Virus record (IMG/VR): IMGVR_UViG_3300043409_001491
Location: 1-64,000 of that record
DNA: 64,000 nt
From: a virus
Strand: one strand, 5' to 3'
Shown: piece by piece, positions 4,451-35,251 of the stretch
Layout of the letters: every line of letters begins with the position of its first letter
How positions within the stretch are numbered: position 1 is the stretch's first letter
Translations under genes and position numbers: made by a program
The notes under the pieces: model-generated
Databases searched by the model: none
Seen by the model: only the letters and a program-made list of their open reading frames with translations
Told to the model about the DNA's origin: nothing

Positions 4451-5275
4451 ATGGATAAAACCTTCTATTTTCTTTCTGGGCTTCCTAGATCTGGAAACAC
4501 ATTGCTTTCTAGTATTTTAAATCAAAACCCTACCGTTCATGTTAGCAGTCTAAGCCCAGTTGTTGATTACTTGTGGTCTGCTTATAGCATATCTTTAAAT
4601 GATCAAAATGCTCTTAGACTTAGTTCACAAAACAACAATAAAACATATTTAAATAATATAATTAATAGTTATTATTTAAATGTAGAAAAAAAAATAATTA
4701 TTGATAGAAGTAAGGCTTGGACACAGAATGCTAACTTTAATTTAATTAAAGATTATATTAATAAAGATCCAAAAATAATATTTACTGCAAGGTCAATAAT
4801 TGATATTTTAGCATCTTTAATATCTGTATATGATAAAACAGAACTTATAGAACAAGATATGCTTTATTATAACTGGAACTATAAACATAACTTATCTTTA
4901 ACTGATAATAAGTGTGATTTTTTAATGAGACAAGGTGCCGCGATTGATCTTTCATTAAGTTCACTTTCAGAATTACAAAAAAATAATAGATTTTCAAATA
5001 TTCATATCATTGAGTATGAAGATTTAATAAAAAATCCAGAAACAAGTATGAAACAGGTTTATTATTTTCTTGAAATGGAAAACTATAGTCATGATTTTAA
5101 TAATATAACAGACATTGAAATTGATAGTGCTATGAGTGATTTATTAATTGGACTTCCTGAAGATTTGCACAAAGTAGAAAAATCTTTAAAGTTGTCAAAA
5201 ATTAACCCACATGATATACTATCAGAGTACGTTATAAACAAATACTCAAATTTAGAATTTTGGAGAAATAAATGA
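4451..5275 (+). CDS. Sulfotransferase family protein
   Basis: GLPRSGNTLL 5'-PSB loop, R..DILAS 3'-PB motif, YEDL. Confidence 0.9.
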   Translation: MDKTFYFLSGLPRSGNTLLSSILNQNPTVHVSSLSPVVDYLWSAYSISLNDQNALRLSSQNNNKTYLNNIINSYYLNVEKKIIIDRSKAWTQNANFNLIKDYINKDPKIIFTARSIIDILASLISVYDKTELIEQDMLYYNWNYKHNLSLTDNKCDFLMRQGAAIDLSLSSLSELQKNNRFSNIHIIEYEDLIKNPETSMKQVYYFLEMENYSHDFNNITDIEIDSAMSDLLIGLPEDLHKVEKSLKLSKINPHDILSEYVINKYSNLEFWRNK

Positions 5276-26706: not shown

Positions 26707-27536
26707 TAACCTCCAGTATATGGTCTAGACAAACGATTGCTCCAGTTAAATAGTTATAGGTTGCGTCCTTGCTTGGTAGGTCTTCAAGGCTATCCCTATC
26801 CTGTACTATGGATATGCGGTGTATCTTGATATATTCTCGTAGTGTTTTTATGTTCATATATTAATTATAGTGGTTTGGGCTGACAGGGTCAAGTTCTACA
26901 GGTGTGATGTTGGTCACTTCCCTGGACAGTTCATGTGAAAGTATACTATTAGCATATGCTCAGGATCTGTTGTGGTTGCTCCACATGTGTTACAGGACCA
27001 AGATTGTTTAGCCATTAGCAGTCCTCACATAGTACATCGCCATAAGGAATAGATTTGCCACACTCACAACACCAAGACTCATCTTTCATCCCCATTAATC
27101 AAAGTACCCTTCTGCCCATAGCCCCTGGAGAAACTCTCTAGTAGTAACTAGGTAGTTATAGATAGCAGGGTGCTCATCAGAGTTGATTAATAGTATAGCG
27201 TTATCAACACCATATGTCATGTTGTTTAAGTCTTCTAATTCATAGCCTAACATTAGCCTACCCCCAGTATTCTAAGATAGTTTGCATGGTAGTATGTATT
27301 ACGCAGTCACAGTCTCCACCCATGTTATCCATGAATTCAAGATGTGAGTAGTTGTCGTTGTAGATTTCATCTACGAGTTCGCTTATTGTGTATGGTTTGA
27401 ATGTTGTTTGAGTCATGTATTAATTATCGCATGAAACTGGGAAAATGTCAACTCTTCCGTAATGAAGATTTGAGAAAAATAACACTGTTACGTAATAAGA
27501 GTTGTAACAAAATGTTATAAAACCCGAGCCAACCTT

Positions 27537-27611
27537 GCGATTCCAACGGGACTTGAACCCGTAGCCTCTACCGTGACAGGGTAGCGATCTAACCAATTGA
27601 TCTATGGAATC
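27537..27611 (-). tRNA. tRNA-Asp(GTC)
   Basis: GATTCCA/TGGAATC acceptor stem, CTGTCAC loop, GTTCAAGTC. Confidence 0.92.
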
Positions 27612-27615
27612 TTGC

Positions 27616-27643
27616 GAGCAGTTTTAAATCTTGCTCAGGATTT
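27616..27643 (-). ncRNA. H-type pseudoknot motif, copy 1 (others at 28829, 29513, 30113, 32915)
   Basis: AAAUC-CUGAGCAA-GAUUU-AAAAC-UGCUC; P1 covaries across five copies. Confidence 0.65.
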
Positions 27644-27647
27644 TTTA

Positions 27648-28664
27648 CTATGCGAGTTGCATTACATTCTGTACAACTTTTAGCAAACGATTTTTTTCTG
27701 CATTGATAGCAGGGTCAAATCCGCTTGCACTTGCTAGGATTGATTCATTAGAACCACCACGAGCAGAACGATACCAATCAAGACGCTCAGTTAGCGCATT
27801 GAAAGCACCCCACGCATTACCAGCAATCATGCCGTTATATTCGCCAGTGTAAATGTCATTGATAACATCTATTTTGTTTTCCCACTTCTTTACAGCACCC
27901 TTAGAATCTTTTTCAGGTTTTGCATAAGCAGCAAGAATAATATCGTTGAATTGCTTGGCAGAAACTTCTTTTTCAATCATAGCCTTAGCCATGATATCAA
28001 ATGCGTCCATGTACTTGTTAGCCATGCCAAGGGTCTCACGAGCAACTTGCACCTTACCGCTTGCAGTTTGTGTGTGACGAATCTTGAATGATTGCTTTAC
28101 GCCACCCTTGACTTTTTTCTGATTAAGTGCAAGATTGAGAGTGTTAGCGCATACTACACGAACAGGTGTGATACTTGCTTGAATAGCGATAGAACCATCG
28201 TGTGATGTATTGATAAGCAAATAAGTCTTTACCTTATCTGCAACACCGCTAGGGTCTAGAATTGTCTCACGCTCTAGTGCAAGAGAACCAAATACAACAC
28301 GTCCACCCTTGATTGCGCCAGCAGTTTCCCAACGTCCACCACCATCTAGAATGTTATCACCAAATGAGAATAAATCTTCATTCTGCATTACATGGTAACG
28401 CTCACCAACAACACCAAGAATGTCTGTCTGTGAATTATCTGTAGGGTTAGTACGCAATACATATTGATATTGTTTATCACTTGTTAAGTGTGATGGAGTA
28501 ATCATATCCTCTAGACGAACATTCCAGCCATTAAGATTTGCTGCTTCCAGCATTTCGATAGTAGATTTTTCTTCTGTGAATACGGTACCCAATCCATGCC
28601 AAGCAGGCTCACGGAAAGAGGCGAAAGATTCTTTTCCGTTTTGTGTTTCTATGTCATGTGCCAT
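27648..28664 (-). CDS. DUF932-family phage/plasmid protein
   Basis: PAWHGLG, ETAGAIKGG, NTSHDGS, RVVCANTL and IRHT. Confidence 0.9.
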   Translation of the reverse strand: MAHDIETQNGKESFASFREPAWHGLGTVFTEEKSTIEMLEAANLNGWNVRLEDMITPSHLTSDKQYQYVLRTNPTDNSQTDILGVVGERYHVMQNEDLFSFGDNILDGGGRWETAGAIKGGRVVFGSLALERETILDPSGVADKVKTYLLINTSHDGSIAIQASITPVRVVCANTLNLALNQKKVKGGVKQSFKIRHTQTASGKVQVARETLGMANKYMDAFDIMAKAMIEKEVSAKQFNDIILAAYAKPEKDSKGAVKKWENKIDVINDIYTGEYNGMIAGNAWGAFNALTERLDWYRSARGGSNESILASASGFDPAINAEKNRLLKVVQNVMQLA

Positions 28665-28903
28665 GAGTTTTTTCCTTTTCTGTTGATTGTTTATACTAAG
28701 TTTAGCAGACAGGGCTGACAAAGTCAAATCGTCCTAGCAGACAGGGGACAATCTGGACATTTCTTAAAGTGTCGTAAATCACATGTGATCTTGGTCACAC
28801 CCCCCGAGTTTTTTATGGCAAAAAAATTAAGCAGTTTACATGGCCATGCTCAGGGCCCTTGCCTAGTTTAAAGACATTCGGCATGTCTATTAGTAGCCCC
28901 CTA

Positions 28904-29329
28904 CTAAATATCTATTCTGTCAACACTGGCTGACAACCAAGAAATATTATCTGAGTTATATTGAACGGTATCAAAATCAATATCGTGAATTGTATTCTGT
29001 GCAGACTCCTCATCACGAGCATTAACTGTAACTGAATAAAGAACTGTAACTTCTAGTTCAAATTCTTTAGTTAGTTCAAAGCCCATAATTTCAGCAATTT
29101 GTTCTGCTTGAGATTCAGAGATATCTTCATTCTCTAATTCTTTAAGGGTCCAGTCTTGCATTCCCTCAACCATACGGTTACGGTCTGCAGAATCTGTATA
29201 TGAACGTTGTGTTACTTTTTGGATGTGCTCTTCAAGATTAGCAATGCGCTCATCCTTGATTTGAATCTGAGACTTAAGAAAGTCTTCTGTAGCATTTATG
29301 ATTGTTACTGATGTTTCTGCTTGGTCCAT
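28904..29329 (-). CDS. Hypothetical protein
   Basis: AGAGG RBS after a TGTCAG promoter. Confidence 0.75.
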   Translation of the reverse strand: MDQAETSVTIINATEDFLKSQIQIKDERIANLEEHIQKVTQRSYTDSADRNRMVEGMQDWTLKELENEDISESQAEQIAEIMGFELTKEFELEVTVLYSVTVNARDEESAQNTIHDIDFDTVQYNSDNISWLSASVDRIDI

Positions 29330-29417
29330 GAGGGGCCTCTTTCTGTAGTTGGTTAGTTTAATTATACCGCTGGCCACTGACATTTGTCAAGGGCCCTGGA
29401 TCCTGGGAAAAGGGGTA

Positions 29418-29500
29418 GATGGCGGTGTGCCGTTATGACTCAATACCCTTTGGTTAAAGGGTCACACTCTTACCTATGCCGTCGGAACGGACAGACCATC
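29418..29500 (-). ncRNA. Putative structured RNA
   Basis: Nested stems GAUGG/CCAUC, CCGUU/AACGG, GUGAC/GUCAU and CCUUU/AAAGG in an ORF-free gap. Confidence 0.4.
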
Positions 29501-29645
29501 ATTTAATTGTATGAGCAGTTTTGATACTTACTCAGGTAATTGCACTTCTTGCAGTTGGTGCGAACTGGCTCTATAGTATTTCTATTATCGCCCTAATCAG
29601 CCTGGCGAAAGTTGAGGGAGGTTTTTACGCCTCCCCCAATTTCAT

Positions 29646-30068
29646 TTATAGGTATTGTGCGATTGCGTTGTAAGTTGAGGTATTTACTGTTTCCTCATCT
29701 GTCATCTTTAACAGACGAATTGCATTTGAGATTTCTTTCTTTGACTCACGATAAGAGTGTTGATGGATTACTTCGTATTCCTTCTCAGGCTCTTGTGGCA
29801 AATCTTTTTCTGCAACTGTCAAATCAAAGTCAATGTTTAGATTGTTTGAGTATGAGCGATAGTTAGTGCGGAAGTTTTCTGCCTTCTCTATGTTTGCTAC
29901 GGCATAAGAAATAAGTTCTTTCTTATACACATCATAAGCCATCTGATACTTTGCTTCTTTTGCGTTTTGTGTTGCGTAGTCTGCTTCTAGTGTAGCAAGT
30001 GCTTGCTCTAGTCCTGCGATTACACGAACTGTTGGGATTTTTACATTTATTGCTTTTGCTCTAGCCAT
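29646..30068 (-). CDS. Hypothetical protein
   Basis: ORF followed by a hairpin terminator. Confidence 0.75.
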   Translation of the reverse strand: MARAKAINVKIPTVRVIAGLEQALATLEADYATQNAKEAKYQMAYDVYKKELISYAVANIEKAENFRTNYRSYSNNLNIDFDLTVAEKDLPQEPEKEYEVIHQHSYRESKKEISNAIRLLKMTDEETVNTSTYNAIAQYL

Positions 30069-30153
30069 CTGTTTATCTCTTTTCTTTGGTGGTTTGTTAG
30101 TGGGGGTGGTGTGAGCAGTTTTGCACAGACATACTCAGGTCTTTTGTTTTAGA

Positions 30154-30318
30154 TTACTTTGCTGTCCAAGTTGTGTAGCGAGTGTTACCTTCTACATTTA
30201 ACTTAACACGAACATTTCCGTTAGCAAGAGTTGTGATTTCCTCAATGACTCCTGTTACCTTTGACTTTTGAGTTGTGTAGGTATCTCCTACGCGATAGGT
30301 TGCGGTTGCTACTGACAT
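30154..30318 (-). CDS. Small SH3/KOW-like beta protein
   Basis: AAGGA RBS; YRVGD..TGVIEEI. Confidence 0.65.
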   Translation of the reverse strand: MSVATATYRVGDTYTTQKSKVTGVIEEITTLANGNVRVKLNVEGNTRYTTWTAK

Positions 30319-30506
30319 GATTTCCTTCTTTCTGTTTGGTTGATATTTAAGTATAACATTTCCTACTGACATTTTGCAAATCCTACCCTAACATTTCTCA
30401 CTATGTGAGATGACTAGGGGTGTGATTTGGGTCACTTTTTATGCCCCATGCCTGCGAATAGAATAATGATAAATAATACAGTTAAGATTAAGATTTCCAC
30501 TTAGCC

Positions 30507-31229
30507 TCATTTCTTAGTTGCAGAAAAAACTATGTCTGCTTTAGAGTATACACACAATGAGCAAGAAACGCAAGCGGAGCCTTTTGTACTGATTAGAGGT
30601 ATCTGCCTATTATTCTCAGGACACTTCGCGGCAGGGCGATTAGTAAGTGCCTTCATGTCTGCTTGTCCTATTAGAAAGTTTTTAGCAAGGTATGCAAGAC
30701 GAATGCCATGATCATTTTTCAGGGTAACGCCAATAGACTTATTCTCACTATCTGTGGAATAATATAAAGATAGATTAGCAATGTCCTTAAGCATAACAGC
30801 GGCAGACTTAACTCTAGTGTATACCCAGAATTGTATATTAGTATTGTTAAGGATGATATTCTTCCATGCTTGTGTATAAGTATCATTGAAGAAATCTCCG
30901 TCCCAGTGGATACGGAATAGTTTTGGGGCATTGCGTTTATCACAGTCAATAATAAACTCATCTATCATTTGAGTTAATAACACCTGCATGGTGTCAAGGT
31001 CTGCGTCTTTGAGTAATTCCCAGTTATGCAATAAGTTTTTCTTTACCGCTGGGAAGACCTTTTCCAATTTGCCTGCATAGCAAACAGTCTCACAGACAGT
31101 AGTTGCGCCAGGACATGAATAGGCCTTTCCTGCTGGTAATCCGAAAGTGTTGGCGATACTTGCTTGTTTTCCATTTGGTGTGACGGCATTGGCTACTTTC
31201 CTATCTTTGCTTCTAAGTAATTTAGTCAT
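30507..31229 (-). CDS. Gp88-like (radical-SAM-like Cys-rich) phage protein
   Basis: CPGATTVCETVCYA, RIHWDGDF, WVYTR and C-terminal CxxCxxC. Confidence 0.8.
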   Translation of the reverse strand: MTKLLRSKDRKVANAVTPNGKQASIANTFGLPAGKAYSCPGATTVCETVCYAGKLEKVFPAVKKNLLHNWELLKDADLDTMQVLLTQMIDEFIIDCDKRNAPKLFRIHWDGDFFNDTYTQAWKNIILNNTNIQFWVYTRVKSAAVMLKDIANLSLYYSTDSENKSIGVTLKNDHGIRLAYLAKNFLIGQADMKALTNRPAAKCPENNRQIPLISTKGSACVSCSLCVYSKADIVFSATKK

Positions 31230-31485
31230 GGTGGGTTACTCGCTTTCTTGTTCTAATTCTACTACAGGGGACTGACAAATATTCTTTCTAGAATAAGTTT
31301 TCTTTGAAGGCACAGCCGTAGCAGCGTTAGACCTACGTAATTCCATAAGTCTACGTAATTCTTCAGGTGTTTTCTTCATACTTAATTTTAGCAGAAATGG
31401 GAAAAAATGTCAACTTACGTAAACGACACGCCCAGTGCGCCCGAGGTTTTTTATGCGGGGAAGTGCATAAAAACTTTAGTAATTA

Positions 31486-31716
31486 TTATTCTTCAAAAAA
31501 TACATACCACTCAATAGTTTCATCATCAAATAAATAAACATGACCCTCTTCATTAAAATCATTTCTAGTGTAAATATTAAATCCATCTGCATTTTCTGTA
31601 ATGGTTTCAATAGTTACACATTCATCATCAACCTTAATTAGATCGCCTTCCATAAGTTGAGAGGGCAATAAGTTATCAGCAAATCTAAGTTCCATGCTGT
31701 TTATTGTATCAGACAT
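31486..31716 (-). CDS. Small acidic hypothetical protein
   Basis: GAGG RBS. Confidence 0.65.
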   Translation of the reverse strand: MSDTINSMELRFADNLLPSQLMEGDLIKVDDECVTIETITENADGFNIYTRNDFNEEGHVYLFDDETIEWYVFFEE

Positions 31717-31717
31717 T

Positions 31718-31993
31718 TCAATCCTCATCTACTGGGTCAATGAACCAATTAAGGTGGTGTTGGTCTACAATCGCTCTTGCTGGTGCGTGACTCATACCCT
31801 TATAGAATACGCCTTCAGGCATAGCAATAAATCTTTCATAGTCCTCATCATAGTAAGCGTCAATAGCCTCAATACAAGGCTGAACCATAGAAAGTGGTAC
31901 TGGTGGATAGTGATTACCCCGTAAGTGATACGCTAATTGCGTTTCTAAATCTAATACTGTATCTTTGATACCTAGTGCTGTTACGCTTCCCAT
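31718..31993 (-). CDS. Hypothetical phage protein
   Basis: HLRGNHYPPVP motif. Confidence 0.75.
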   Translation of the reverse strand: MGSVTALGIKDTVLDLETQLAYHLRGNHYPPVPLSMVQPCIEAIDAYYDEDYERFIAMPEGVFYKGMSHAPARAIVDQHHLNWFIDPVDED

Positions 31994-32211
31994 TATTTAC
32001 TTACGACCTTTCGTCCTTCACGATAGAAAGTGGTGGTGTGCATTTTTCCATTAGGCTCTGATAGATTAACTGTTGCGTATTCATCAGCCATTCCCCAATC
32101 AGTAAACGATAGATAAGACTTTACTGCATCAAGTGCGTTGTCATAGCGACCAATCCAATGAGGCGACCTATCTCCGTCATAGGTGTTTGTTACTGAATAT
32201 AGATATTCCAT
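31993..32211 (-). CDS. Hypothetical protein
   Basis: Coupled ORF; AAGGAG RBS. Confidence 0.7.
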   Translation of the reverse strand: MEYLYSVTNTYDGDRSPHWIGRYDNALDAVKSYLSFTDWGMADEYATVNLSEPNGKMHTTTFYREGRKVVSK

Positions 32212-32393
32212 TATGCATTCTCCTTAGTGTATTCATTCATTTCATTCTCAGCATACCATAGGGTGTATTCAATCGCAATCGCTGTACCCTTTTCACAATC
32301 GTTGCAAAAATCTGTAATAAACTCATTCTTCATTATGAGTCCTTCATCATAGCAAGTGTAGCAAGTGCCAATCTCATCAAATAAGTTTCCCAT
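32211..32393 (-). CDS. Small Zn-finger protein
   Basis: Two CxxC; AAGGAG RBS. Confidence 0.65.
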   Translation of the reverse strand: MGNLFDEIGTCYTCYDEGLIMKNEFITDFCNDCEKGTAIAIEYTLWYAENEMNEYTKENA

Positions 32394-32504
32394 TATTTAT
32401 ACTCCTTAACGCAATTAGTGCAAATAGAATAGTTAGTGCAATAGCATGATTTCGCATTAGGGCGAAGCATATCTGTTTCATAGTAGTCATCATAGAAATC
32501 CATA

Positions 32505-32735
32505 TTAGTCCCCTACCTTTACTGCAATCGTAGCATAAAAATCTTCCTTGGGCAAATCAGGGAACCCACGATAGGTAGGGCGTACTGTTACAAGATAGGC
32601 TTCAGCATTATGAAAATAAATATTTTCACGCTTTTCTGCATACTGTATAATTCCTTCCAAGCCTCTACGCTTTAGAGAGTGTGAGCGATAATACTTACCT
32701 TCAAGTAAATCTGTTATTGTGTATTCTGTAGCCAT
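32505..32735 (-). CDS. Hypothetical protein
   Basis: First gene after a TGTCAG promoter. Confidence 0.7.
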   Translation of the reverse strand: MATEYTITDLLEGKYYRSHSLKRRGLEGIIQYAEKRENIYFHNAEAYLVTVRPTYRGFPDLPKEDFYATIAVKVGD

Positions 32736-33092
32736 AGGGGCGACCTCTTTCTTTAGTTAATTTATTATTACTCTGTAATCCTACCATGGCAGGCTGACAA
32801 AAATCTAATTACTAGCCAGTAGTCTTAAATAATGAGACGCTCAAGGATTGTGAGAAAAATCACATCGTACGTAAAGTTATCCACAGCCTGTGGAAAACCC
32901 CCCGAGAAAATATTGAGCAGTTTTATATCTTGCTCAGGATTTTATTTTATTTGTTGCGTTCATCTCGCAATTTAAGTTGCAGCCTGCGAATTTCTTTCTG
33001 TTGTTCAATGTTGTGTTTCCAAAATACAAGCATCATTGAAAGAGATCCAGCAAGTGCAATTACAATTGCAATAAGTGTTCCAGTGTCAAGAA

Positions 33093-33275
33093 TCATACTG
33101 TTTCCATCTCCTTAACGCAAGCATCCCAAAATCTTGTTTCATCAAATCTTGGATTGTCTGCACTAAACCACTCGCTGAATTCAAAAACTAAATCTTGAAA
33201 TACGTGTGAGTCAATAGTATCTGCAAACTGGTTTAGAATTTTTGCAGTTTCTACATAGTCTTTGCGTGTCATCAT
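33093..33275 (-). CDS. Hypothetical phage protein
   Basis: MTRKDY...DNPRFD..RF. Confidence 0.7.
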   Translation of the reverse strand: MMTRKDYVETAKILNQFADTIDSHVFQDLVFEFSEWFSADNPRFDETRFWDACVKEMETV

Positions 33276-33979: not shown

Positions 33980-35251
33980 AGGCAAGTATAGCAAAAAAAT
34001 ATCAAGAAAGCAAATCGACACGCCGTAAATCAGGGGAATAGTAGTGTGATCTTAACCACATAAGTTATACACAGGCTGTGGAAAACCCCGAGCAAAAATT
34101 GCAGAGTTTTTATTTCTGCAATCTTTTTTATTTATGCTCCGTTATGAAACCAAACTACAAGAGCAGTGCAAGTCATAGCAATAAGAATAACTATCATTTA
34201 TTTATTCTCAATCTCATCTAATAGTTCCCAAAGTATTGGCTCTAATTCTTTAGCAGCCAAATCTAATTTATCTTGTAAGGTTTTCATTTATTTAACTCCC
34301 TTGTATAGAAAATCCCAAGCCTTACGGCAGATTAAAATTGAACGGCAGTTATCACAACAGATAACACCATGGGGGTTAAGGTCTAAGTCATAGACATCAA
34401 CAGAGGCAGAAGACTTACCACATACAGAAGCAAGGTTTAGAAATGTACTCATTTAGTTAAATACCAATCTGTCCACATAGGTAGACGCTCAGGGTCATGG
34501 TCGCCATAGTAGCGCTCAATATTTTGTTCACAATCTTGGCAGAAAGTAAATTGCTCATCTCCTACTGAGGAGATAGCGGAAAGCATAGGATTATGCTCTT
34601 TACATATTGTTGAGATAGTCATTACTTGACCCCCTCAAACAATTCTTTACACTTGTTAGGATTTTCCCACCAAGTGAAACCTGCGTGATACTTAGCAGGG
34701 GCGAGGACAACCTGTCCACAAGGGCAGAGGTTCATTACACCTCTAGGGTAATCGCTAACAGTAGCGAACTTTTCAAACAATGAATTCATTTTGAATTCCT
34801 TTCTTTAGAGGATTTCTTTACCTCTTGTTTTTCTTTATACTGTAATTGTAGCAGGGGGGACTGACAAATTGGGGGGTTACTGGCCAGTATTTTAAAACTA
34901 TTTTTGTGATACTCGTCACATTTACCCGAGCAAAAAATCGTAGGTTTTATTCTACGATCTTTTTTTTATTTAGAATAACTTCCAGATTTTATTAGCAAGT
35001 CTAACTTTTTTGCTAGTGGGTCAATGTATTCATCTTCCCAAAAGTTTTCTATTTCTAGTTTTTCTACATAGTCTCTCATTTAGTTCTCCTCTCTTTCTAG
35101 TAGGAATAAATTGTTTAGTGTTTGATTAGCACGATTAAGAGTGTTGAGCAATTCACGATTAGCGAACGCTTGGCGTTCCTCAGCATACTTAGCCTGTTGG
35201 GCTAGTCGCAATTCCTCTAAGCGAGGGGATAGTTTAGGGTTAGTCATTTAC

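Follow-up and report, generated by a model that had tools for sequence, protein, structure and literature searches.

Among gene-end terminators and 3′ stabilisers are the REP hairpins between cistrons and the weak phiX174 terminators, and an ordinary hairpin is able to cap a 3′ end. In preQ1-I (RF00522), the junction contains a C that pairs with the ligand. Coremin (xrRNA-C), with the sequence GUC-CGAA-GAC-GUUAAAC-UAC, and a variant with a Watson-Crick pseudoknot (xrRNA-WCC) are found in plant, fungal and insect RNA viruses (PMC10520033, PMC10321173); moving the loop G abolishes coremin resistance (PMC10520033), and S2 of the WCC variant is 3 bp (PMC10321173). In the small luteovirus pseudoknots, a triplex locks the two helices together.

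We analysed a window of 64,000 nt (positions 1 to 64,000 of IMG/VR record IMGVR_UViG_3300043409_001491) from a 105.9 kb phage genome. Its minus strand carries a tiny, strictly conserved RNA pseudoknot that lies just after gene ends in very many unrelated phages and is absent from Rfam.

Five copies in one phage

A sequence-only reading had placed five pseudoknots on the minus strand, and all five were found there: pattern and covariance-model searches agree on exactly five copies in the whole genome, all on that strand, with covariance-model E-values of 5e–12 to 3e–6, and the pattern CTGAGYAW..AAACTGCTY gave 5 matches vs. 0.00 expected from 100 shuffles. They are, as that reading also held, intergenic and in the same sense as the flanking minus-strand ORFs. 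Copies (coordinates including P1 and the +1 base, with covariance-model scores) and related features are:

27537–27611, minus strand: tRNA-Asp(GTC), directly downstream of copy 1
27615–27643, minus strand: copy 1, AAAUC-CUGAGCAA-GAUUU-AAAAC-UGCUC(G), 46.5 bits
28828–28857, minus strand: copy 2, GGCC-CUGAGCAU-GGCC-AUGUAAAC-UGCUU(A), 27.9 bits
29512–29538, minus strand: copy 3, UAC-CUGAGUAA-GUA-UCAAAAC-UGCUC(A), 40.3 bits
30112–30142, minus strand: copy 4, AGAC-CUGAGUAU-GUCU-GUGCAAAAC-UGCUC(A), 30.3 bits
32914–32940, minus strand: copy 5, AUC-CUGAGCAA-GAU-AUAAAAC-UGCUC(A), 47.4 bits
34086–34122, minus strand: classical terminator hairpin, 8-bp stem, loop AAUAAAAAC, UUUUUG, then CTCGGGG
34925–34958, minus strand: second classical terminator hairpin, 7-bp stem, loop AAUAAAAC, UUUUUUG, then CTCGGG

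Copy 1 stands 8 nt past the stop codon of a DUF932 gene (TAG, 27648–27650) and, as had been noticed from the letters alone, 4 nt ahead of tRNA-Asp; the order DUF932 gene, pseudoknot, tRNA-Asp is kept in related phages. Copy 5 likewise follows its stop codon (32947–32949) by 8 nt, and copy 2 lies 46 nt past the stop at 28904–28906. These two are the only copies in the window with a U-tract: copy 2 is followed by AAUUUUUUUGCC, then CTCGGGGGG (28800–28808), a TGTGA-N6-TCACA site and the DUF932 gene promoter, and copy 5 by AAUAUUUU, then CTCGGGGGG (32898–32906) and the next promoter. They share with sister spacers a slot of the form ‘stop – X – U-run – CTCGGGG – promoter’, where X is copy 2, copy 5 or, at 34.1 and 34.95 kb, a classical hairpin; a terminator scan found classical terminators nearly absent from the minus strand of this region. 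Copy 3 is about 107 nt past its stop (29646–29648), with an ordinary hairpin and a conserved element of 47 nt in between and a 12/12 sigma-70-type promoter (29361–29390) downstream. Copies 2, 3 and 5 are all upstream of the next gene's promoter, and hence absent from that gene's main transcript. Copy 4 lies 14 nt past the stop at 30154–30156 and 43 nt upstream of an ATG at 30068, and is operon-internal, since there is no promoter between it and this ATG.

Fold and conservation of the motif

The motif spans 27–31 nt and runs from P1 through the loop CUGAGYAW and a linker ending in AAAC to UGCUY(A), which pairs back onto the P1 loop. P1 has 3–5 bp and an invariant C-G closing pair. P2 (UGAGYA/UGCUYA) has 5–6 bp, the possible sixth joining the loop U to the base 3′ of UGCUY, which is A in four of the five copies here. 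Only about 8 bases are unpaired, and some of them hardly vary: the single nucleotide of L1 is C in 204 of 204 copies, and the linker has AAA in 202 and AAAC in 194 of them. The junction between the helices is one variable base (T 103, A 90, C 9, G 2; n = 204). G is nearly absent at positions +2 to +5 (1, 4, 8 and 9 of 148 copies), as expected if P2 must not grow into L1 and the closing pair. Single helices are predicted to be weak (–5 to –7 kcal/mol, z-scores –3.4 to +0.6); most likely the 1-nt L1 (C), the 1-nt junction W and the A-rich L3 ending in AAAC lock both helices into a triplex.

P1 changes sequence and always pairs, as the five copies had suggested (AAAUC/GAUUU, GGCC/GGCC, UAC/GUA, AGAC/GUCU, AUC/GAU). 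Among the 148 unique viral copies found with a pattern that made no demand on P1, all have at least 3 bp there, and the two inner pairs are 100% Watson-Crick with 3–4 pair types. A lack of P1 covariation in a larger alignment had been named as what would speak against the fold; the covariation score was instead 0.375, vs. 0.147 for shuffled and 0.04–0.11 for slid partners. The sequence-only reading's compensatory changes hold in this window for P1 but not for P2, which shows only wobbles here (C-G to U·G, G-C to G·U); true P2 compensation is seen in other genomes only. Substitutions in P2 there are all compatible with pairing, including 8 double changes, the alternative pairs being U-A (4/4 with U6), A-U (3/3 with U31) and one G-C, and no disruptive C·A or A·C occurs at changed P2 pairs among these copies. 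The U·G and G·U wobbles are compatible with the sense-strand RNA only. With two helices, a loop that pairs downstream and covariation for both P1 and P2, assignment to the H-type pseudoknots, as the sequence-only reading had proposed, is well supported.

In shape the motif comes close to coremin, which is also very small and has a C-G-closed hairpin, a loop of the form C...A-(A/U/G) and an AAAC-U spacer that pairs back to make an H-type pseudoknot; both occur in untranslated or intergenic RNA, are sometimes repeated, and act without protein (only presumed for the phage motif). They differ in the loop, CUGAGYAW with G at position 3 against YGAD or YGNNAD with G at position 2, and in S2, which has 5–6 Watson-Crick pairs in the phage motif and 0–3 bp in coremin. 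Of the coremin spacer ..UUAAAC-UAC the phages share AAAC-U, while the rest, UGCUY, makes a 5–6 bp Watson-Crick helix and so comes closer to the WCC variant. The hairpin hp2 of coremin is not associated with the phage motif: a hairpin starting within 5 nt with ΔG ≤ –4 follows 23 of 253 copies vs. 34 of 253 control windows. The frameshift pseudoknots of luteoviruses (BWYV, PLRV; PMC10321173 and general knowledge) are similar in their short S1, an L1 of 1–2 nt beginning with C, one junction base, an A-rich L3 expected in the S1 minor groove, and a spacing to the decoding site of about 5–8 nt.

Spread among phages and placement at gene ends

The motif is present in more than 119 IMG/VR contigs and in cultured phages of Firmicutes, Cyanobacteria, Actinobacteria, Alphaproteobacteria, Bacteroidota and Moraxella; its invariant bases recur in tailed phages of at least six phyla and in one 5-kb Microviridae genome. 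Mycobacterium phage Labelle, Cyanophage S-RIM4, Lactobacillus phage KC5a and S. aureus phage phiJB are among the cultured carriers. Prophage-like DNA of many phyla carries it as well, up to Saccharibacteria and Methanobrevibacter. The cultured carriers found mostly infect lineages with RNase J and include no phage of enterobacteria or Pseudomonas. Other carriers are the Moraxella phages and contigs binned with genomes of Polynucleobacter and Methylococcaceae that gave no RNase J (TIGR00649) hit. Flanking genes are unrelated (DUF932, GP88, Hsp20, RNR, SSB, anti-restriction, scaffold, tRNAs), and no co-occurring gene was found in the motif neighbourhoods examined. A match to a characterised family would have removed the novelty seen by the sequence-only reading; no Rfam family matches the motif, and its sequence was not found in the searchable literature.

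Placement is keyed to the upstream stop codon. Between stop codon and CCUGAG, 0 of the 244 copies have 0–7 nt, 35 have 8 nt and 19 have 9 nt; the distance is within 20 nt in 50% of these copies and above 100 nt in some. Measured to the start of P1, the mode is 5–6 nt, and values below 4 almost never occur (one copy at 3). The edge of the ribosome's mRNA channel lies 5–6 nt past the stop codon. Distances from the motif to the next start codon are far broader, with some copies just ahead of a ribosome-binding site. A same-strand ORF contains the motif in only 7 of 176 copies. Near tRNAs, it is found only before the first tRNA that follows an ORF, 4–8 nt ahead. A U-tract (at least 6 U in 9) comes after 15–17% of copies vs. 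0.4–3.6% in control windows. Siphophages of Staphylococcus, Lactobacillus and Streptococcus, and likewise the Microviridae genome, carry the motif just upstream of scaffold/capsid genes.

Possible roles of the pseudoknot

Our preferred but tentative reading is that of a roadblock: a cis-acting RNA that would need no dedicated protein and would cap the 3′ ends of mRNA; we infer both the nuclease block and its direction. Sited at a gene end just outside the reach of the terminating ribosome, the pseudoknot would never be melted by translation and could form a mechanical stop against exoribonucleases. In this phage it would mainly cap the 3′ end of the upstream message: at copies 2 and 5 once transcription has terminated at the U-run, at copy 1 once RNase P has cut at the tRNA that lies 4 nt downstream, and at copies 3 and 4 once an endonuclease has cut in the spacer. 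Such capping would set the stability of each early-gene segment. Gene-end placement, the U-tracts, the first-tRNA context, the shared terminator slot, the position of copies 2, 3 and 5 upstream of the next promoter and the spread across phyla beside unrelated genes all argue for a 3′ cap, and among the functions that the sequence-only reading had listed, a stability element or nuclease block fits the contexts best (gene ends, the terminator slot, before a tRNA), whereas its aptamer and antitermination site are not supported. Roughly one third of the copies are operon-internal, and a crude neighbour count is similar for convergent ends (19) and after divergent neighbours (15), both of which argue against a 3′ cap. 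An ordinary hairpin suffices for capping, so that this role alone would leave the near-invariant loop and linker bases unexplained; and because each helix alone is weak, the nuclease block would depend on the presumed tertiary fold.

The block might instead shield what lies downstream (the next cistron, a tRNA, or the scaffold/capsid message), the motif being a prokaryotic counterpart of the coremin-type xrRNA; we regard this as possible but unlikely. Bacteria, to our knowledge, have no Xrn1, and the processes blocked would be 5′-to-3′ decay by RNase J or 5′-end-dependent scanning by RNase E. The resemblance to coremin speaks for it (a short C-G-closed hairpin, a loop starting with C and ending in A-(A/U), the AAAC-U spacer), with an Xrn1-resistant coremin heptaloop, CGAGUAA, only one base away from the phage loop CUGAGUAA and a Watson-Crick variant in existence, but the phage loop has CUG where coremin needs YG, and the hp2 that coremin requires is not enriched. 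Where several phage lineages place the motif ahead of scaffold/capsid genes, shielding of the message that follows would be at least as good an explanation as a 3′ cap; three copies in the window, however, precede the next gene's own promoter, and it is the upstream stop codon, rather than the downstream start, to which the motif is tightly coupled. On the host side, the cultured carriers, found mostly on RNase J lineages and not on enterobacteria or Pseudomonas, speak for such a block, and the Moraxella phages and the Polynucleobacter and Methylococcaceae bins against it. We think it improbable that the motif supplies the structural part of an atypical intrinsic terminator or pause signal, in which P2 would form in the exit channel, stacked on P1, and RNA polymerase would be released at the U-run. 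U-tracts are enriched at least 5-fold directly 3′ of the motif, and copies 2 and 5 occupy the exact slot of the hairpin-plus-U terminators of sister spacers in a region with almost no classical minus-strand terminator; yet a U-tract is lacking from more than 80% of copies, 1, 3 and 4 among them, its presence does not affect the distance to the next gene, and many copies lie 4–40 nt ahead of a tRNA or ribosome-binding site that needs co-transcription. A 5–6 bp stem with a loop of 11–14 nt also makes a poor terminator hairpin, and on this ground and that of the minority of copies with U-tracts the motif does not qualify as an ordinary intrinsic terminator. The motif is like gene-end terminators and stabilisers in standing directly after genes, in having some U-runs, and in being interchangeable with classical hairpins in this phage, but it is a pseudoknot with loop and linker invariant across phyla, not an arbitrary GC-rich hairpin.

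About equally doubtful is a ribosome barrier, with the pseudoknot standing against the mRNA entrance of a ribosome that has the stop codon in its A site, where it would stop post-termination sliding or re-initiation, insulating neighbouring cistrons, or would modulate termination or recoding. Coremin is able to stall ribosomes and to promote –1 frameshifting (PMC10321173, PMC10520033), the architecture is like that of the small luteovirus frameshift pseudoknots, and the modal stop-to-P1 spacing is that of frameshift and read-through pseudoknots, but half of the copies, among them copies 2 and 3 here, are more than 20 nt from the stop codon. The phage motif also differs from the luteovirus ones in following stop codons in intergenic RNA with no slippery site or overlapping frame in the copies read by eye. 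No conserved open frame was seen to pass through it (its own UGA is in frame at 10- or 13-nt spacing, and copy 5 meets UAA after 8 codons), and this, with the few copies inside same-strand ORFs, speaks against a –1 frameshift or read-through stimulator even though the stop spacing fits. The chance seems slimmer still that some universal factor or nuclease recognises or processes the motif, or that it is a very small self-cleaving RNA cutting polycistronic transcripts at gene boundaries. Near-invariant unpaired bases would suit this, and the cross-phylum spread and sites beside tRNAs and between cistrons recall phage-borne small ribozymes, but no Rfam ribozyme family matches, the unpaired bases are few for an active site, the neighbourhoods examined hold no gene that goes with the motif, and the Microviridae genome has no room for a partner protein. 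A small ligand-binding aptamer switching the fold on and off, which the sequence-only reading had likened to preQ1-I, is very improbable: the ~30-nt H-type topology and A-rich third loop agree, but RF00522 did not match at its gathering score, nor at E ≤ 10 on 27400–33100. The junction is one variable base, not a conserved C, P2 does not hide a ribosome-binding site, and the at most 5 copies per genome stand at the ends of unrelated genes and not in 5′ leaders across a regulon, with no queuosine genes as neighbours. An antitermination site, also proposed from the sequence, is unlikely given 5 copies per genome at gene ends, U-tracts at 16% of copies, and hosts from cyanobacteria to Firmicutes. 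We also rejected a TYMV-type tRNA-like acceptor (the 3′ strand of P2, then N-CCA), ACC following about 18% of viral copies, mostly at related DUF932–tRNA loci, and about 5% of bacterial-genome copies.

Five pseudoknot copies and their fold

Over 27500–33100 the minus strand carries five elements exactly as the sequence-only reading had described them: an outer helix (P1) that pairs in every copy although its sequence differs, with an invariant closing C-G; an 8-nt loop, CUGAGYAW; a linker (L3) ending in AAAC; and UGCUY, which pairs with GAGYA of the loop to form P2. P2 can be extended to 6 bp by the loop U and the base after UGCUY, which is A in four copies.

27615–27643, minus strand: copy 1, P1 AAAUC/GAUUU, adjoining tRNA-Asp
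28828–28857, minus strand: copy 2, P1 GGCC/GGCC
29512–29538, minus strand: copy 3, P1 UAC/GUA, upstream of a perfect sigma-70-type promoter
30112–30142, minus strand: copy 4, P1 AGAC/GUCU, operon-internal
32914–32940, minus strand: copy 5, P1 AUC/GAU

The pattern CTGAGYAW-N(3-14)-AAACTGCTY matched the window five times, always on the minus strand, vs. 0.00 expected from 100 dinucleotide-preserving shuffles, and a looser pattern recovered the same five copies. The source genome is complete (105.9 kb, with direct terminal repeats); pattern and covariance-model searches of its whole length both found only these five, confined to a 5.3-kb part of the early, minus-strand region. Their intergenic position, their sense orientation relative to the adjoining minus-strand ORFs and the 4 nt between the end of copy 1 and tRNA-Asp were likewise as first described.

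The IMG/VR pattern CCTGAGYAWG-N(2-13)-AAACTGCTY imposes no P1 requirement; among the matches listed were more than 119 contigs and 148 unique copies, and P1 had at least three pairs in all 148 of these (3 bp in 30, 4 bp in 78, 5 bp in 30, longer in 10). In an ungapped alignment of 112 copies the two P1 pairs adjoining the closing C-G were 100% Watson–Crick, with 3–4 pair types and zero wobble, and their covariation was 0.375 vs. 0.147 when shuffled and 0.04–0.11 for slid partners. Relaxed scanning of the fetched loci (1.9 Mb) gave 204 unique copies, with 0 in the reversed control. One P2 pair was C-G in 150, U.G in 50, U-A in 4 and C.A in none of these; another was G-C in 186, G.U in 15, A-U in 3 and A.C in none. 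With a single change of A-U to G-C, every P2 change among the 204 keeps pairing, and Moraxella phage Mcat1 has an additional copy with A-U compensation in P2. Because the wobble pairs become A.C on the opposite strand, the structure is a property of the sense RNA.

The single C of L1 was invariant (204/204) and AAA was kept in 202/204, the sole recurrent odd variant of the relaxed scan being a tail change of C-U to A-G (7 copies). A recurrent sub-class, in loci L010, L037, L056, L065, L077 and L097, has the tail AAAAGGCUC in place of AAACUGCUC; its two changes always co-occur, always with the loop GAGCA, and the A7-U27 pair is lost. L3 carries long insertions in a few copies, with covariance-model matches reaching 67 nt.

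In nested folding P1 alone or P2 alone gives only –5 to –7 kcal/mol, and therefore any unusual stability would have to come from tertiary contacts. We infer that the strictly Watson–Crick inner P1, 1-nt L1, 1-nt junction and A-rich L3 match the requirements of a luteovirus-type triplex. G is nearly missing at +2 to +5 past the motif, which fits selection against extension of P2 into L1 and the closing pair.

Spread among phages and novelty

The motif is present in Cyanophage S-RIM4, Mycobacterium phage Labelle, Arthrobacter phage Molivia, one Christensenellales phage and one Microviridae genome; in many phages of Lactobacillus, Streptococcus, Staphylococcus, Anoxybacillus, Geobacillus, Bacillus and Moorella; in cyanophages of Synechococcus, Cylindrospermopsis, Microcystis and Nostoc; and in Paracoccus, Lentibacter, crAss-like and Moraxella phages. 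Of 122 matches in a GTDB genome scan, 80 had a proper P1, with the modal length of 24 nt in 63 of these; the remaining 42, of random lengths, look like chance background. The 80 copies came from Saccharibacteria, Aminicenantes, Clostridia, Bacteroidota, Cyanobacteria, Desulfobacterota, a few Proteobacteria and one Methanobrevibacter bin, and wherever inspected their neighbours were phage genes. Comparison of neighbours across loci (DUF932, Hsp20, scaffold protein, ribonucleotide reductase, SSB, anti-restriction protein and many unknowns) gave no partner gene co-travelling with the motif. That a 5-kb ssDNA phage carries it is an argument for action alone or via universal host machinery. A copy with the loop CCGAGCAU, present in 27 near-identical Vibrio phages (phage D456, OZ195695; 701–727 of locus L252), is antisense to annotated genes, reflecting either mis-annotation or a look-alike, and for that reason was excluded from the host argument. 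Some contigs (loci L024, L048, L064, L066, L077 and L123) have tandem pseudoknots, 57–100 nt apart in a single spacer, reminiscent of tandem xrRNAs.

Rfam 15 gave no match to the motif; with the gathering score or E ≤10 as the cut-off, only tRNAs and noise were returned. Megablast of the region against GenBank phages gave zero matches, and BLAST matches to Acinetobacter were rejected as 16-nt chance identities within a virion protein gene. Neither the motif sequence nor any phage exonuclease-resistant pseudoknot is described in the searchable literature, with the possible exception of one 2026 preprint (10.64898/2026.09.22.753630), in which a genome language model is used to mine non-coding elements and pseudoknots and phages are mentioned.

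Placement at gene ends and candidate roles

Distances from the preceding stop codon were compiled for 244 copies.

Distance of the motif from the stop codon (n = 244)
CCUGAG 0–7 nt past the stop codon: 0 copies
CCUGAG 8 nt past the stop codon: 35 copies
CCUGAG 9 nt past the stop codon: 19 copies
No more than 20 nt from the stop codon: half of the copies
First P1 base: mode 5–6 nt past the stop codon

A spacing of 5–6 nt puts the knot just beyond the mRNA channel of a ribosome whose A site holds the stop codon. Distances to the next start codon were broad, and only 7 of 176 copies lay inside a same-strand ORF. Placement associates the element with the end of the gene that precedes it; classification by gene neighbours was crude, too noisy to split a 3′ from a 5′ role, and miscalled copy 5. 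A U-tract followed the motif in 15–17% of copies vs. 0.4–3.6% of control windows, and U-tract copies were no farther from the next gene than others, giving no discrimination. In tRNA contexts the motif stood 4–8 nt ahead of the first post-ORF tRNA only (Asp or Arg) and, where tRNAs follow, never before the internal tRNAs of the cluster. A tRNA-like ACCA end was rejected, its enrichment being limited to related DUF932–tRNA loci.

Downstream of copies 5 and 2 come a U-run, CTCGGGGGG, a TGTGA-N6-TCACA site and then the next promoter. Two sister spacers, at 34.1 and 34.95 kb, have classical hairpin-plus-U terminators in the exact slot of these two copies. The motif is interchangeable with terminator hairpins in this phage, and is at all times out of the reach of terminating ribosomes. 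Termination at the U-run, or an RNase P cut 4–8 nt downstream, would make the pseudoknot the final structure of the upstream message, with a 3′ tail too short for a 3′-exonuclease to grip, as the known behaviour of PNPase, RNase II and RNase R suggests. On placement, ribosome clearance, terminator interchangeability and this last-structure position, we therefore favour, tentatively and with real doubt, a putative protein-independent 3′-end cap and segment-stability boundary.

The main rival works in the opposite direction: the motif would protect the RNA downstream of it from 5′–3′ decay, like coremin, the xrRNA-C of plant, fungal and insect RNA viruses. The likeness to coremin is real, extending to the closing C-G, the C...A-W loop and the AAAC-U of the spacer; coremin also has a Watson–Crick pseudoknot variant, and one resistant natural loop is CGAGUAA, as compared with CUGAGUAA in the phage. 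However, the second hairpin (hp2) that defines coremin is missing from the phage motif, after which downstream hairpins were not enriched relative to control windows, and the phage loop does not have G at position 2. Downstream protection suits the copies ahead of scaffold and capsid genes in Firmicutes siphophages and a Microviridae genome, but three of the five window copies lie upstream of the next promoter. Similarly, the carriers found infect mostly RNase J-bearing lineages, yet they include Moraxella phages and Polynucleobacter and Methylococcaceae bins, in which bins RNase J was not found. A roadblock could also act in both directions. Identification as a terminator, ribosome barrier, processing site or ribozyme, or aptamer accounts in each case for part of the data and fails elsewhere.

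Among the copies ahead of scaffold genes, 85 Staphylococcus phage records have a variant with loop CUUAGCAU and tail UGCUU plus a U-run, 57 nt upstream of the gene; in S. aureus phages phiJB (KT344895, 21444–21484; 1190–1230 of locus L251), B236 and B166 the annotation of the element reads 'putative promoter P5R'. We rejected a promoter or protein site acting at the DNA level: P1 covaries, the U.G and G.U pairs of P2 would become A.C on the opposite strand, and a –35/–10 pattern is lacking. Genome annotation would benefit from recognizing the element.

We regard the motif as a candidate gene-end RNA stability structure, a known kind of element, here in the form of an H-type pseudoknot. With slightly less assurance than for the 3′-end cap, we suggest that it may be the first xrRNA-like roadblock of a prokaryotic virus, a 27–30 nt protein-independent triplex pseudoknot stalling RNA-degrading enzymes, perhaps ribosomes, at gene boundaries. 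Such a roadblock would be common to phages of most bacterial phyla, the tiny Microviridae included, would have converged on, or share a design with, coremin of eukaryotic RNA viruses, and would serve as a portable module setting the lifetime of each mRNA segment. Few cis-acting RNA structures of phages would be as widespread as this motif. If it does block nucleases or ribosomes unaided, it would give a simple account of how mRNA stability is partitioned between neighbouring genes in phages nearly devoid of classical terminators. DNA phages would then join eukaryotic RNA viruses under the xrRNA concept, and synthetic biology would gain a portable 30-nt insulator or stabiliser.

Other elements of the early-region spacers

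Early-region spacers are stereotyped, running from a gene-end structure through a U-run, CTCGGG(G/C)G and a CRP-like TGTGA-N6-TCACA palindrome to a promoter of the form TTGACA..TGTCAG..TATAAT.

28784–28808 and 32898–32906, minus strand: stereotyped spacer sites
34086–34092, 34925–34930 and about 31440: further stereotyped spacer sites
29398–29500, minus strand: stretch of ~100 nt from copy 3 to the next promoter
29562–29608, minus strand: conserved 47-nt element, TCGCCAGGCTGATTAGGGCGAT(A/C)ATAGAAATACTATAGAGC..
34086–34122 and 34925–34958, minus strand: classical terminator hairpins, loops AAUAAAAAC and AAUAAAAC

Pairing in the stretch past copy 3 includes a 7-bp hairpin (ACCCUUU/AAAGGGU) as well as long-range base pairs; 29398–29500 could be assigned to no tRNA, Rfam family or ORF, and the 115 nt past copy 3 folded no better than shuffles (z –1.1). 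The 47-nt element, a possible promoter or small-RNA start, stands behind a plain hairpin here and behind a pseudoknot copy in the related contig L077 (about 4570–4620), and in both genomes another pseudoknot comes after it. The loops of the two terminator hairpins resemble L3 (AUAAAAC) plus the 3′ strand of P2 of the pseudoknot, a likeness that could be due to chance in AT-rich sequence or to common descent of gene-end modules.
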